A stretch of 64,000 bases of DNA from Thermoproteota archaeon (GCA_027491395.1 JAOZFI010000006.1:1-64000), one strand, 5' to 3'; positions 876 to 15,561 are shown, counted from the first letter of the stretch. Translations and numbers: made by a program. The notes: a model not told the origin generated them from the letters alone.

Positions 876-1187
876 GTGATCATATTGAAGATATATGGGA
901 TTGAAAGAGAGTTATTTGCACTTTCTCTCGCAATCCTGTTAATACTGCCGTTAGCAGCCAGTATACCAAACTCCATGGGTGTCTGGATAGGGACCTATGT
1001 AAGAACGTGGTCTATGAAGCGTGCTCACAGGATGGCTAGCTGGGCGCTTGATCAGATTACCGATCCCATCGGATGGGCAATAGGACACCATACTTGGTAC
1101 ACACGCCTCACATCTATTGCACTCATAGCTTATAGTGGCATTGGACCTTATTACGCGGCATTCACGATAGGATTCACTGTAGGGTGA
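876..1187 (+). CDS. Small hydrophobic peptide precursor (putative circular bacteriocin/archaeocin precursor); start may be TTG at 885
   Basis: 103 aa: charged N-terminus, hydrophobic leader, Trp/Gly/Ala-rich core, ends in Gly. First gene of a SpoIIM-Yip1-ABC operon. GGGTGAT SD overlaps the GTG at 876. Confidence 0.7.
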   Translation: MIILKIYGIERELFALSLAILLILPLAASIPNSMGVWIGTYVRTWSMKRAHRMASWALDQITDPIGWAIGHHTWYTRLTSIALIAYSGIGPYYAAFTIGFTVG

Positions 1188-1726
1188 CAGAAATTATTAG
1201 AACATTCTGTTTACCTGAGTTTTTTATTCTAATCATTTATCTATCATCGTTTGTTGTAGGTACATGGTACACCTTTAACGAAAACGGCGCTCGGGATGGA
1301 TCCTTCCATCTGAAGGATATTAAAAATATTAATATAAATTACCTTGATTTCATCAGGATGATATTGTTAAATAATTTAGTGGCAGGTATCTTAATCATTG
1401 TGGGAGGATGGTTGTTCTGCATACCGACTCTCTTAGTCCCCATAGCTTCGGGTTACTTTGCTGGGCTTTACTTTGGAGCCGCTTACAGAGCTTATGGACT
1501 CTTCATTTCCTTAATTTTGTATATCCCCATGCCCTTGGAGATAGCCGCCATAGTTATCCTAGGTCATGTATCCTTCAAGCTATGTAAGGAGAACCTCAGG
1601 AGATTAAGGGGAAACGACTCGGATGCTCCTTTGCTCAGAGGCCATATTAAATCTATCACATACGGTATTTTCCTCATAGTTGTAGGTGCTGTGATTGAGA
1701 CGATTATTCAATTCTACATCGGTTAA
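1184..1726 (+). CDS. Stage II sporulation protein M (SpoIIM/DUF95) family membrane protein
   Basis: ILLNN..., G.F.G, P.P.EI.A and C-terminal 'GAVIE' motifs typical of DUF95; GTGA overlap with the precursor gene. Confidence 0.8.
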   Translation: MTEIIRTFCLPEFFILIIYLSSFVVGTWYTFNENGARDGSFHLKDIKNININYLDFIRMILLNNLVAGILIIVGGWLFCIPTLLVPIASGYFAGLYFGAAYRAYGLFISLILYIPMPLEIAAIVILGHVSFKLCKENLRRLRGNDSDAPLLRGHIKSITYGIFLIVVGAVIETIIQFYIG

Positions 1727-1778
1727 ATTCATGAATGAGATCGCCAGGGGAGATTTATGAGGCTATTCTTTTTCCTTC

Positions 1779-2345
1779 ATGCTGGTGCTCCTCACGGGAA
1801 TCATGGTATACCTTTACTTCACTATGCCGTTCTTAAAGCCCAGTACCTCCACATACGCCGAAATGGATGTCCGCATTATAAGGGGATCTTTCCTACTTAC
1901 TCCGGTATTTTCCAGTCTCATAGTCGTCCTGATATGGGCTGTGGAATCTTCTTTAGCCTCGCTCGTCATCAGAAGATCGGTGAGAGGGGCGGAAAGGTCC
2001 CACATAAATTTAGGCGTTATAATGAGCGAATTTTCCTTGAGATACGTTCCTGAATTTATCTTCCTCCTCATAATAGTCCCGCTCGTATGGTTCAACCTCC
2101 CTGAATACACAGTGACCTCTGTGAAGGAGCTTATTAACGCATCTAAGAGCCTAGGAGAGTCTCCACTATACGTAAACGGGATGCTCGCTCTGATTGCTGT
2201 ATCCATATCTCGCTATCCCATATACGCAGCCATACTCAGATACAGATTGGATATAGGATGGAGGGAGACCCTCACTATCATCGCCCTGCTTATCATTGTT
2301 GATACACTCATAGCTTTGTGGGGAGGAGGGTTTCGGCTTAGGTAG
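1779..2345 (+). CDS. Multi-pass membrane protein, Yip1-like; original start may be 1731 with an in-frame TGA at 1758
   Basis: About 5 hydrophobic segments; sits between SpoIIM and the ABC ATPase. Confidence 0.55.
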   Translation: MLVLLTGIMVYLYFTMPFLKPSTSTYAEMDVRIIRGSFLLTPVFSSLIVVLIWAVESSLASLVIRRSVRGAERSHINLGVIMSEFSLRYVPEFIFLLIIVPLVWFNLPEYTVTSVKELINASKSLGESPLYVNGMLALIAVSISRYPIYAAILRYRLDIGWRETLTIIALLIIVDTLIALWGGGFRLR

Positions 2346-2360
2346 GGGGGTGAGTTAGGC

Positions 2361-13221: not shown

Positions 13222-13821
13222 TTAGGGATAGGGTGCGTTATTTTTTAATAATTGTTGGGCAGCAACCTTTGGATAATATATTCTCAGCACTATGTCTGTC
13301 AAAAGAAGCATGAGTATCATCGCTACACCGTCCTCCCTCTTCATCCCATATCTATGATTGAAAACGCGATAGAAGTAGATGAAGGATAGAGTCGAGAAGG
13401 AAGTATCGATTAGCGCCTTGATTGATGAGTATAGCTCGATACTAGATGCTCCTATAATGGGAAGAAGCACCAGATCCGTTATCAGTGATATAGACGAAAA
13501 GAGAAAGTAAAAAGACACAACACCCAGTATTGGGGAGAGTGGGCCCTTATACACGCTTCTATAAAACAAGAAGAGGTAAGTTAGTGCTCCCAGCAGGCCC
13601 CAGAGTAGGGCTCCGGTGAAGCTGCTTCCTAACAACACAAAATATGCGATAACATATGGGGGAATGGATTGATTGGCTACACCCAGCTCGTTCAGGACGA
13701 TCATTAGGTACAAGGATTGAGTACCCGTGTAGAGCAGGTATAGGAGAAGGGGCCTTCTCCTATTGGATGGAGGGTTATTGTTAAGCAGATCCGGATTTTC
13801 TTCTCTTCTACGTATGGCCAT
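13222..13821 (-). CDS. Multi-pass membrane protein (possibly Yip1-like), last gene of peptide cluster 2
   Basis: About 5 TM segments; overlaps the SpoIIM gene. Confidence 0.6.
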   Translation of the reverse strand: MAIRRREENPDLLNNNPPSNRRRPLLLYLLYTGTQSLYLMIVLNELGVANQSIPPYVIAYFVLLGSSFTGALLWGLLGALTYLFLFYRSVYKGPLSPILGVVSFYFLFSSISLITDLVLLPIIGASSIELYSSIKALIDTSFSTLSFIYFYRVFNHRYGMKREDGVAMILMLLLTDIVLRIYYPKVAAQQLLKNNAPYP

Positions 13822-14341
13822 TTAACTTCACCAAGATGCAAGGTATTGAGAGATAATATTCTATAACTGATGATGATATTATCATAATTAAACTTAATAA
13901 CGCTAATTTTGTTAAATAAACTAAATGATCTCTGGAGAGGTCGTAGGGATCCCCGCCATGGATTACCGTTACGGCGCTCGAAAGACCTACGGATGAGGAT
14001 ATGAGGATGGAGGTGATCTCCAGCGGCCCGTGGAATAGAAAGCAGGGGAGTGCACCTGTCAAGTTTTCTCTGAGAATTTCCCTAAAGATGCTACCTACCA
14101 CCATGCCGTTGAAGCTAAGGGAGAGAGCCGTGAGCGTTCCAAGTGTCACATACCCTATGGAAAGAATCAGGATAACGGAACTGTTCAAGAGGATAAGTCC
14201 GCGTAAATTATAATGTCCATTAAAGGGATGAGGAACAAAAACTCCACCTGACCCTTCCGTGTAAGATTGATCTGGGATCAGGAAGCTTCCTAAGATCCCG
14301 GCCGCATAGAAGAGCGATGCTAAGATCAGTCCCTCACTCAT
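13808..14341 (-). CDS. SpoIIM/DUF95 family membrane protein
   Basis: LILLN, FNGMVVG, HGPLEI and C-terminal 'SSVIE' motifs. Confidence 0.88.
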   Translation of the reverse strand: MSEGLILASLFYAAGILGSFLIPDQSYTEGSGGVFVPHPFNGHYNLRGLILLNSSVILILSIGYVTLGTLTALSLSFNGMVVGSIFREILRENLTGALPCFLFHGPLEITSILISSSVGLSSAVTVIHGGDPYDLSRDHLVYLTKLALLSLIMIISSSVIEYYLSIPCILVKLNGHT

Positions 14342-15305
14342 CCTCGGGCCTTGTTTCGTCCCTACCATGGCTCATCCTCCTGATGATCTCTATTCTCTTC
14401 TCCAAGCTAGGATGCGTTGGAAGTAGGGAGGGGGTTTCCTTCATTCCATATATTTTGATCAGAGCGTTTATCAGATCCTCTGGATTTGAGTAAGATGCTG
14501 CAATGAGATCGGCCTTCACCTCCCTCCTCCTTATCAGGATTAAGAAGACCGACAACGCTGCCAAGAAGCCAGTCACCACTAGCAGAAAGCTTACGGGATC
14601 GCGTGTCGTTACTGTCCCCGTTAAGGAGGAGAGTACTTCGCCTACAAGGAGTAGCATCGCGTACATCAGTAGTGTGTAGCCCAGATACCTGACGATGTCT
14701 CCTTCTTTATAATGGGCGAGCTCGTGGGCCAACACGCTCTTGATCTCTCCATTAGACAGCACCTTAAGCAGATCCTCATTTACGAAGACAGTTGGTTGAA
14801 TGATTCCCCCAAGAAGCGTAGTTTTCATTAGAGAGGATCTGAATAATCGGAGCCTTATATCCTTCCTGATCCCCATCTTTCCCTTAAGATCCTCGAAAAC
14901 CCTCTTCAGATCATCTGGGGGATCCTTTCCTTGACCAATCTTATCGAAAATTAAGGGAACCAGATTAACCGTGACGAACAGTACTACGAGAAAAGTGGAG
15001 AATTCGACTAGGATGCTGTGGCTGGGAAGTGAGGAGATTACAGCAGCATAGATGAAGATTAGATATAAATCGAAGTAATTGAGCAGGAGATCCTTGAATA
15101 ATCTCCTAGTTCCCGGGCTTTCCTTACTCAGAATAGAGTCCATAAGAGAGAGAATTATGGCAGTTAGTATCAAGATTACGAATCCAGTTATAAGAGGGTT
15201 AAGCCCATAATTAACCACGATGAATACACTAAGGGACATCATAGCTATGGCTATGAGAGCCATCACCAAGTTGTAAAGAGAAAAAAATGTAGGATTAGTT
15301 CTCAA
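14334..15305 (-). CDS. M48/HtpX-like membrane zinc metallopeptidase
   Basis: E.KSVLAHELAHY, RRREVKAD, THPSLEKRI motifs; 4 N-terminal TM segments. Confidence 0.9.
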   Translation of the reverse strand: MRTNPTFFSLYNLVMALIAIAMMSLSVFIVVNYGLNPLITGFVILILTAIILSLMDSILSKESPGTRRLFKDLLLNYFDLYLIFIYAAVISSLPSHSILVEFSTFLVVLFVTVNLVPLIFDKIGQGKDPPDDLKRVFEDLKGKMGIRKDIRLRLFRSSLMKTTLLGGIIQPTVFVNEDLLKVLSNGEIKSVLAHELAHYKEGDIVRYLGYTLLMYAMLLLVGEVLSSLTGTVTTRDPVSFLLVVTGFLAALSVFLILIRRREVKADLIAASYSNPEDLINALIKIYGMKETPSLLPTHPSLEKRIEIIRRMSHGRDETRPEDE

Positions 15306-15315
15306 TACAGATCCC

Positions 15316-15561
15316 TTACCCTATTAGGAAACTACCTACTGCTACAAGAGCGCCGGCTAAACCCGTAATTGGAGTACTGCATGCTGCTATTTTTGCTAGG
15401 GCTAAGAAGTACCCTCCTAGTGCCACTGCAGCTGCTCCATAATTACCTCTAGCAAGTAGATAGCCTACTCCCAACTGAGTTGCTGCAGGTGTTAATATAG
15501 GAAGTACCAATATTGCTATATTGAGGGCGAGAAGGGCTAGGGCTTTCTTTTCTGCCTCCAT
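15316..15561 (-). CDS. Small hydrophobic peptide precursor (putative circular bacteriocin/archaeocin precursor 2)
   Basis: 81 aa, Ala/Gly/Leu-rich, ends in Gly. SD GGGGTGAT and AT-rich TATA-like TTTTATAA upstream. First gene of the peptidase-SpoIIM operon. Confidence 0.75.
   Translation of the reverse strand: MEAEKKALALLALNIAILVLPILTPAATQLGVGYLLARGNYGAAAVALGGYFLALAKIAACSTPITGLAGALVAVGSFLIG

Follow-up and report, generated by a model that had tools for sequence, protein, structure and literature searches.

Two precursor-like peptides heading independent SpoIIM operons in a Thermoproteota archaeon

Introduction

The membrane protein SpoIIM, or DUF95, is taken as class-defining for circular bacteriocins in passages of three papers (PMC13289728, PMC8534725, PMC5695211), one of which recognises a cluster by a precursor, DUF95 and a protein that binds ATP (PMC8534725). 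The aureocyclicin 4185 locus of plasmid pRJ101 runs in the order ATP-binding protein, SpoIIM, hypothetical protein, circular bacteriocin, HlyD and ATP-binding cassette (ABC) gene. We report here on the first 64 kb of one contig from the 1.7-Mb genome of a Thermoproteota archaeon (GCA_027491395.1, JAOZFI010000006.1:1-64000; hereafter the window, meaning this whole stretch of 64,000 nucleotides), in which two unrelated pre-peptides, P1 and P2, each head their own operon together with a stand-alone SpoIIM and a polytopic membrane protein. We read the two clusters as independent members of a set of polymorphic archaeal modules that pair a small peptide with SpoIIM and that may, by analogy, parallel the bacterial loci for head-to-tail cyclised bacteriocins. 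The most likely reading, which we put at about even odds, is that each cluster is, independently of the other, a SpoIIM-type module for a bacteriocin-like peptide and its maturation or immunity.

For circular bacteriocins, the parts of PMC10028692 cited here give leaders of 2–48 amino acids (aa), a subgroup II with leaders of 24–33 aa, cores of 58 aa, a grand average of hydropathy (GRAVY) near 1 and a net charge of +1 to +3, and a need of circularin A for an aromatic C-terminal residue; the same parts describe cleavage and ligation as unsolved, with none of the steps fully elucidated. Among archaea, stand-alone SpoIIM paralogues lie in the arCOG01996 cassettes of Archaeoglobi, Methanococci and Thermococci (excerpts of PMC4158269 and PMC5898192), neighbourhoods that excerpts of PMC5898192 read as serving membrane remodelling or vesicle formation. 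Section 3.3 of the latter paper describes cassettes of COG1300 paralogues, 3–4 genes long, in which the paralogue is joined by Yip1, an ABC transporter and small membrane proteins that have diverged strongly. The word "bacteriocin" is absent from PMC5898192, and our literature search found no paper linking circular bacteriocins, DUF95 or SpoIIM with archaea, a 2019 mBio survey of archaeal antimicrobial peptides lying outside its coverage.

Results and discussion

Two SpoIIM operons headed by small conserved peptides

Cluster 1 lies on the plus strand. P1 is a precursor-like open reading frame (ORF) of 103 aa (876–1187; GTG start at 876, alternative TTG at 885) that belongs to no Pfam or NCBIfam family, and its stop overlaps the GTG start of SpoIIM-1 in the sequence GTGA (1184–1726; PF01944, E 1.6e-15, above the gathering score). 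The next gene encodes a 188-aa polytopic membrane protein of no known family, a candidate accessory or immunity protein (1779–2345), which has no Pfam match even at E 10 and is conserved in the related genome G004 (33% identity, E 1e-28). It is followed by an ABC transporter ATP-binding protein (2361–3008; PF00005, E 2.2e-30), whose top NCBIfam matches are of the CcmA and DrrA type, and by two putative permeases, a hydrophobic 247-aa membrane protein whose frame overlaps the ATPase gene (2983–3726; a faint ABC2_membrane_5 match only, E 0.38) and a 228-aa membrane protein whose gene overlaps that of the 247-aa protein (3704–4390). Both permeases are called from position and hydrophobicity, neither having a Pfam family. 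In G004 the homologue of the 247-aa protein adjoins P1 and that of the 228-aa protein lies directly upstream of it, and the ABC genes and the P1–SpoIIM pair are still adjacent there in a permuted order.

Cluster 2, on the minus strand, begins with P2, a precursor-like ORF of 81 aa without a Pfam or NCBIfam family (15316–15561), whose ATG is preceded by a GGTGAT ribosome-binding site, with TATA-like boxes upstream. Ten nucleotides past its stop begins the gene for an M48 membrane zinc metalloprotease of the HtpX/Ste24/BlaR1 type (14334–15305; PF01435, E 5.8e-22), in which the motif HELAH at residues 194–198 is an HEXXH zinc site within the PF01435 match. SpoIIM-2, again a stand-alone SpoIIM/DUF95 membrane protein (13808–14368; PF01944, E 6.6e-12, above the gathering score), and a 199-aa polytopic membrane protein of no known family (13222–13821; 53% homologue at the same position in G004) complete the cluster.

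The first-pass annotation had described cluster 1 as holding an exporter without a protease and cluster 2 as holding a protease without an exporter, and Pfam confirms this gene content: there is no peptidase among the genes of cluster 1 and no ABC protein among the four of cluster 2, the permeases being read as stated above. Neither the 188-aa nor the 199-aa protein matches Yip1 (PF04893) at E ≤ 10; compared by BLASTP with the Yip1 of a cassette, the 188-aa protein gives E 0.16. PHROGs and PADLOC returned nothing specific for the cluster proteins beyond generic P-loop matches. Since an RNase P RNA, a tRNA-Met, a LAGLIDADG ORF and toxin-antitoxin pairs lie between them, the clusters are not one operon.

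P1 and P2 are genuine conserved genes. The N-terminus of P1 is hydrophobic and signal-like over about 30 aa, and its core, with a guessed boundary, is 70 aa long, with an isoelectric point (pI) of 9.7 and a net charge of +3; conservation begins at S-M-(G/N)-V-W and the T-I-G-F-T-x-G end is identical among its homologues, which are 95% (G002) and 54% (G004) identical to it and keep its length and C-terminus. Between G000 and G002, P1 shows 1 synonymous and 5 non-synonymous differences, too few to inform on selection. P2 has a signal-like leader of about 28 aa and a Gly/Ala-rich, hydrophobic core (53 aa with a guessed boundary, pI 9.1, GRAVY 1.25, net +2), and its homologues, at 93%, 79% and 60% identity, have the same length and C-terminus. 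Its ratio of non-synonymous to synonymous divergence (dN/dS) against G002 is 0.11 (19 synonymous and 7 non-synonymous differences), and P2 is under purifying selection. Both families are very small: that of P2 has 3 matches in 5.8 billion proteins, with 2 representatives found by profile in 1.84 billion, and P1 has 1 match in the protein search, while among 61 related genomes P2 is found in 2 and P1 in 3. Taken together, the leaders measure about 28–33 aa, with h-regions of about 17 (P1) and 21 (P2) residues.

Comparison with circular bacteriocin loci

As at the aureocyclicin 4185 and AS-48 loci, each cluster has a stand-alone SpoIIM/DUF95 protein beside a precursor that is small, cationic and hydrophobic; other polytopic membrane proteins accompany them, as do, in cluster 1, an ABC ATPase and its putative permeases. 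All three components of the published criterion, precursor, DUF95 and the ATP-binding PF00005 protein, are found in cluster 1, and at 103 and 81 aa both peptides fall below the limit of about 110 aa for a small precursor. With the guessed boundaries, the cores, at 53–70 aa, have sizes and charges that agree or nearly agree with those published for circular bacteriocins, and so do the leader lengths. There are also differences: the host is archaeal, the precursors belong to no bacteriocin family, the leaders look like Sec signals, the last residue is Gly and not an aromatic or large hydrophobic residue, and cluster 2 carries an M48 protease but lacks an ATPase.

A tblastn search of SpoIIM-1 against 72,556 plasmids gave 4 weak matches (E 0.1–0.9), all in Bacillota. 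One is the SpoIIM of Staphylococcus aureus pRJ101, a single gene away from an annotated circular bacteriocin of the uberolysin/carnocyclin family, and another lies on a Lactococcus raffinolactis plasmid near a 64-codon ORF annotated as a hypothetical protein. In hhalign, the alignment of the SpoIIM-1 profile with the SpoIIM of pRJ101, 110 columns long, had an E of 7.9e-5, versus 0.039 for the RDD-SpoIIM housekeeping protein of its own genome; by this measure SpoIIM-1 lies nearer to the aureocyclicin-plasmid DUF95 than to the housekeeping copy with which it shares a genome. Three different Pfam families of circular bacteriocins, PF16942, PF12173 and PF09221, figure in the five cluster sets that the ESM Atlas ranks highest for P2; at 0.85–0.86 their likeness is below 0.9, and we treat it as a lead only.

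The conserved P-x-E of SpoIIM is preceded by H-G in SpoIIM-2 (FHGPLE), in the housekeeping copy (PHGVPE) and in the pRJ101 protein (HGIFE), and SpoIIM-1 reads IPMPLE at residues ~113–120, its G004 homologue LPLPLE, with no H-G. If the His matters, the SpoIIM-1 subfamily works differently.

AlphaFold2 gave models of low to middling confidence. That of P1 (predicted local distance difference test score, pLDDT, 55) is too poor for use; that of P2 (pLDDT 72) has three long helices. Foldseek found nothing for the P2 model in the PDB at E ≤ 0.001, and a wide VIA-align search gave generic helical matches only (Z ≤ 6.7), the middling ones including small membrane subunits of respiratory complexes.

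Leader similarity and the C-terminal glycine

The first-pass annotation had proposed that P1 and P2 share a leader motif, AIL-x(1-2)-LP, and a G-x-x-x-(V/I)-G or similar ending. The strings themselves are present: P1 carries ERELFALSLAILLILPLAAS at residues 10–29 and ends in IGFTVG, P2 carries EKKALALLALNIAILVLPILTP at residues 4–25 and ends in GSFLIG, and, of the genome's 7,282 ORFs that reach 50 aa, P1 and P2 alone show the pattern within their first 40 aa, the pattern having been defined from these two peptides. As a conserved motif, however, it fails. Seven distinct family members are available (P1 from the window, G002 and G004; P2 from the window and as P0001–P0003), and the exact motif is kept in three of them, the others reading LLLLLP, AILVVP, AILVIP and LILAVP, so that homologous clusters lack it and the leader Pro alone is invariant (7/7).

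Alignment scores tell a similar story. Aligned locally, the two leaders score 36. Of 3,000 random pairs drawn from this genome's 307 signal-like N-termini, 2.2% score as high, as do 4.9% of the other signal-like N-termini when set against P1 and 4.3% when set against P2. The window P1 leader scores 36–41 against the window P2 and P0002 and 37 against its own G004 homologue; more distant comparisons fall to 27–28 (G004 P1 against the P2 leaders) and 26 (window P1 against P0003), where the background is 22 ± 6. Whole-protein BLASTP of P1 against P2 gives E = 2, and the distance from the Pro to the conserved core differs between them. What the leaders have in common are general signal-like traits (charges at the start, then a stretch of hydrophobic residues, and a Pro that breaks the helix) and not a family-specific recognition motif.

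The proposed ending survives in part. A C-terminal Gly is present in all seven members, compared with 8.6% of all ORFs of the genome, but its spacing is not common to both families, being G-x3-G in P1 (GFTVG) and G-x4-G in P2 (GSFLIG).

Some known signals were considered for these termini and rejected by reasoning from their known features. For a type IV pilin-like (class III) signal peptide, both P1 and P2 are missing the site as well as a pilin-sized domain; C-terminal sorting signals (PGF-CTERM, GlyGly-CTERM) do not fit, there being no basic tail past the last helix; nor does a SAMP/ubiquitin-like C-terminal Gly, the peptides being hydrophobic helices that end in a single Gly.

Sister cassettes within the genus

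Across the family to which the genome belongs, 32 of 36 genomes carry PF01944 in a housekeeping fusion, RDD-SpoIIM, and 6 of the 36 have stand-alone extra copies (two in G000, four in G002, five in G004, one each in G020, G030 and G029). Extra cassettes lie at G002:C6, G002:C1, G020:C38, G004:C57 (directly downstream of cluster 2) and G004:C38, and consist of a precursor, 1–2 small membrane proteins, SpoIIM and a membrane protein of 133–248 aa. No exporter or protease adjoins at least five of the sister cassettes in the genus, which speaks against the sharing of machinery in trans that the first-pass annotation had raised as possible for the two window clusters. One of these cassettes stands alone in G020, a 95% complete genome in which clusters 1 and 2 were not found with the queries used here. 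ABC genes beside the second G004 C57 cassette were considered as an exporter and rejected, as they encode a binding-protein-dependent importer (BPD_transp_1).

Other precursors of 86–94 aa are encoded at 549–1923 of L071 (G002:C6), 3243–4990 of L184 (G002:C1) and 9179–11356 of L044 (G004:C57), and two of the sister leaders hold (A/E)E(S)P, like the (A/T)EP-x-x-x-G-D of leaders in other archaea. BLASTP gave no alignment between P1 and the 94-aa ORF of the G002:C6 cassette; by eye, the two share M-x-(V/I)-W-G and G-x-G-P. A second M48 module in G004 (treated as the same genome as G402) has SpoIIM followed by an M48 protein of 54% identity.

Clusters 1 and 2 co-occur in all three genomes that have either (G000, G002 and G004), in a search of 61 genomes with the precursors and 43 with SpoIIM-2, and the adjacency of P1 and P2 to SpoIIM is retained in G004 at 54–64% protein identity. 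The clusters are otherwise dissimilar: SpoIIM-1 and SpoIIM-2 are barely alike (E 0.023), and no similarity was found between the accessory membrane proteins of one cluster and those of the other. They have also diverged unequally from their G002 counterparts, cluster 1 being 96.5% identical in DNA (L042) and cluster 2 90.7%, with flanks at 85–88%. Synonymous divergence (dS) between G000 and G002 is 0.01–0.08 for cluster 1 and 0.11–0.36 for cluster 2, and with dS so unequal the two do not look like one co-evolving unit. The low divergence of cluster 1 possibly reflects recent exchange between the two species or a very different constraint.

SpoIIM-linked variable-core peptides in other archaea

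Searches of 401 genomes with profiles of each window protein found stand-alone SpoIIM matches in 9 genomes for SpoIIM-1 and in 23 for SpoIIM-2, and outside the genus the SpoIIM-2 profile has its best matches in the cassettes of other archaea, with E down to 3e-15; for both profiles the best matches outside the genus are SpoIIMs of arCOG01996 cassettes. We inspected 26 loci outside the genus (L022–L032, L048–L053, L055–L057, L060–L063, L067–L070 and L072). In 17 of them an ORF matching a leader profile lies upstream of SpoIIM. Another five contain a hydrophobic small ORF whose leader is of another kind or not clear: four of these loci belong to family f11 (L052, L057, L068 and L072), and in the fifth, L028, the ORF is encoded on the opposite strand. 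In the remaining four (L056, L060, L062 and L070) no upstream small hydrophobic ORF was seen. The profile ORFs, of 76–116 aa, combine a strongly conserved leader with a hypervariable Gly/Ala-rich core and are usually separated from SpoIIM by one small membrane protein. Some of their leaders have K-G before the hydrophobic run and others K-W.

A profile built from 19 precursors found 58 proteins among 8,000 scored candidates, from Methanothermococcus, Geoglobus, Archaeoglobus and Ferroglobus and, where named at all, named "hypothetical protein"; the precursors with this leader belong to no Pfam or NCBIfam family. Peptides with variable cores are thus a real and widespread accompaniment of SpoIIM genes in archaea, which bears out the general notion of an archaeal peptide family that the first-pass annotation had envisaged. 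A leader common to that family and to P1 and P2 is not borne out. The leader profile, built from 11 short ORFs upstream of archaeal SpoIIM genes as that annotation had suggested, matched 19 other ORFs at E ≤ 0.03 and left P1 and P2 unmatched at E ≤ 10 among 26,906 translated frames. P1 and P2 share only a general layout with these peptides: a charged start, a hydrophobic run, a Pro and small residues. Nor is a C-terminal Gly typical of them. The 26 distinct leader-family precursors (one ORF cut by the end of its locus having been dropped) comprise 10 that end in A, 4 in L, 3 in W, 2 in M and 2 in G, and one each that ends in S, E, C, F or I. The common rule of cleavage and ligation that the first-pass annotation had put forward therefore finds its motif in 3 of 7 members and its Gly in 2 of 26 other archaeal SpoIIM-linked precursors, and we do not retain it as a rule.

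The window clusters and the arCOG01996 cassettes are alike in setting SpoIIM beside small, fast-evolving hydrophobic proteins and sometimes an ABC transporter. Unlike those cassettes, the window precursors are without the conserved leader, no Yip1 (arCOG02054) domain was found in the 188-aa and 199-aa proteins, SpoIIM follows the precursor with no small membrane protein between (M48 standing there in cluster 2), and an M48 protease is present. The lineage of the window belongs to a different phylum from families f16, f28, f40 and f11, which are grouped with it as being of the same domain only.

Tandem arrays of at least five cassettes, each a precursor, a small membrane protein and SpoIIM, occupy 6100–17400 of L033 (G228) and 600–12400 of L034 (G397), their cassettes having near-identical leaders and upstream DNA and unrelated cores. 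Where the end is annotated, the arrays terminate in Yip1; two loci, L033 and L040, continue beyond it with a protein of ~500 aa and with an ABC ATPase and its FtsX/MacB permease. This layout looks like that of a polymorphic peptide/immunity locus.

Weighing the explanations

Several observations weigh against reading the clusters as bacteriocin-like modules. To our knowledge, a C-terminal Gly is unlike the ends of characterised circular bacteriocins, and it is atypical beside the aromatic end of circularin A. P1 and P2 fall in no Pfam or NCBIfam bacteriocin family (PF09221, PF12173, PF16942, TIGR03651), the ESM Atlas held no look-alike for P1 (0.75), and the models did not recover a compact saposin-like bundle. 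Cluster 2 is without the ATP-binding protein of the published criterion, and SpoIIM-2, in hhalign, lies nearer the housekeeping SpoIIM (E 6e-4) than the pRJ101 DUF95 (E 0.068). M48 relatives at 56% and 75% identity occur in two other genomes with no adjoining SpoIIM. Both h-regions are long enough that the leaders could be uncleaved membrane anchors, and P2 could be a simple three-helix membrane protein.

Those last points lead to a serious rival, which we consider possible though less probable than not: P1 and P2 would be small integral membrane subunits of SpoIIM complexes for remodelling, vesicle formation or membrane-protein quality control, with M48 an HtpX-like quality-control protease and the ABC genes an unrelated exporter. 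Makarova, Galperin and Koonin (2015) read the arCOG01994/arCOG01996 cassettes in this sense, and the characterised Bacillus SpoIIM is a scaffold and not an enzyme (both in excerpts of PMC5898192); the three long hydrophobic helices of the P2 model, its matches to respiratory-complex subunits and the close M48 relatives that lack SpoIIM agree. Hypervariable cores behind conserved leaders, whole cassettes duplicated in tandem, a strain-level spread of the extra copies that is patchy (6/36 genomes, with 2–5 copies in three of them) and a lower G+C are, on the other hand, marks of conflict or bacteriocin loci rather than of housekeeping complexes. A housekeeping RDD-SpoIIM is present separately in most genomes of the family, and SpoIIM-1 is nearer to a bacteriocin-cluster DUF95 than to the housekeeping copy, which also fits poorly with membrane subunits. 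A plainer proposal, that P1 and P2 are ordinary Sec-secreted or lipid-anchored small proteins lying beside SpoIIM by chance, would explain the n-, h- and c-regions that both N-termini show by eye, with small residues (AAS, AAT) after the Pro. We regard it as very unlikely, given the overlap of the P1 stop with the SpoIIM-1 start, the adjacency kept in G004 at 54–64% identity, and the order of small ORF then SpoIIM, which recurs in 21 of the 26 loci in other archaea (17 with the leader profile, 4 others on the SpoIIM strand) and in the further cassettes of the genus.

We also find improbable the single maturation rule of the first-pass annotation, in which each peptide would be cut after AIL-x-LP and ligated to its C-terminal Gly, and the clusters would complement one another in trans, the M48 of cluster 2 processing both peptides and the ABC transporter of cluster 1 exporting both. 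In its favour, the clusters go together in all three genomes, the C-terminal Gly and leader Pro are invariant in both families, the window leaders rank in the top 2–5% of signal-like pairs, and one Yip1/ABC set following several cassettes at two annotated array loci is a precedent for a shared exporter. Yet the exact motif is kept in a minority of members, distant homologues score at background (26–28), the distance from Pro to core differs, and the SpoIIMs and accessory membrane proteins of the two clusters have little or nothing in common. The genus cassettes that have no protease or exporter, including that of G020 where neither cluster was found, the rarity of a C-terminal Gly in other SpoIIM-linked precursors and the difference in dS likewise count against it.

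A possible mechanism and its significance

As bacteriocin-like modules, the clusters might work as follows, the cleavage site, export, cyclisation and antimicrobial activity all being predictions from gene content. The leader would bring the peptide to the membrane and then be removed, in cluster 2 plausibly by M48 and in cluster 1 by some other peptidase; the SpoIIM complex would mature the core, protect the producer, or both; and the ABC transporter of cluster 1 would export the peptide or clear it from the producer's membrane. Cyclisation of the P1 and P2 cores in particular is a tentative suggestion that we rather doubt. The full conjunction, of SpoIIM-dependent, cyclised, membrane-active peptides with Sec-like leaders, present as 2–5 cassettes per genome and with M48 as their dedicated leader peptidase, we judge unlikely.

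Much would follow if processed or cyclised peptides are made. The circular bacteriocin class would reach a second domain of life, the arCOG01996 cassettes, so far attributed to membrane remodelling, would be re-interpreted, and thermostable minimal operons (a peptide, M48, SpoIIM and one membrane protein) would become available for dissecting the chemistry. Were the M48 and cyclised-peptide proposal true as well, these would be the first archaeal circular "archaeocins", M48 would be the leader peptidase that no circular-bacteriocin system has yielded, and there would be a handle on the cleavage and ligation chemistry of DUF95. If no such peptides are made, the clusters are two ordinary accessory membrane operons.

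Genomic context of the clusters

The window opens with the 3′ end of a 23S rRNA gene (1–681; Rfam, 605 bits), and cluster 1 begins 195 bp downstream of it; overlapping "ORFs" at 144–735 are artefacts of the 23S rRNA. The RNase P RNA (6646–6932), the tRNA-Met (8442–8517) and, after the latter, a free-standing ORF with a LAGLIDADG_3 domain (8857–9957) lie between the clusters. G+C content is 44–48% at 8001–16000, compared with 52–58% in most of the remaining window, which fits accessory or acquired DNA around cluster 2. Toxin-antitoxin and related genes are dense at 4795–5593, 7406–7663, 10920–11385 and 16290–17267, the set comprising a HEPN gene paired with a nucleotidyltransferase, a HicB-like orphan, HicA paired with HicB, and a Fic/DOC protein that has a helix-turn-helix (HTH) domain, and G002 is without the stretches 6936–8342 and 10201–11542. 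A Cys-rich ORF of 304 aa on the minus strand (5635–6549), of no Pfam family, has an N-terminal hydrophobic segment.

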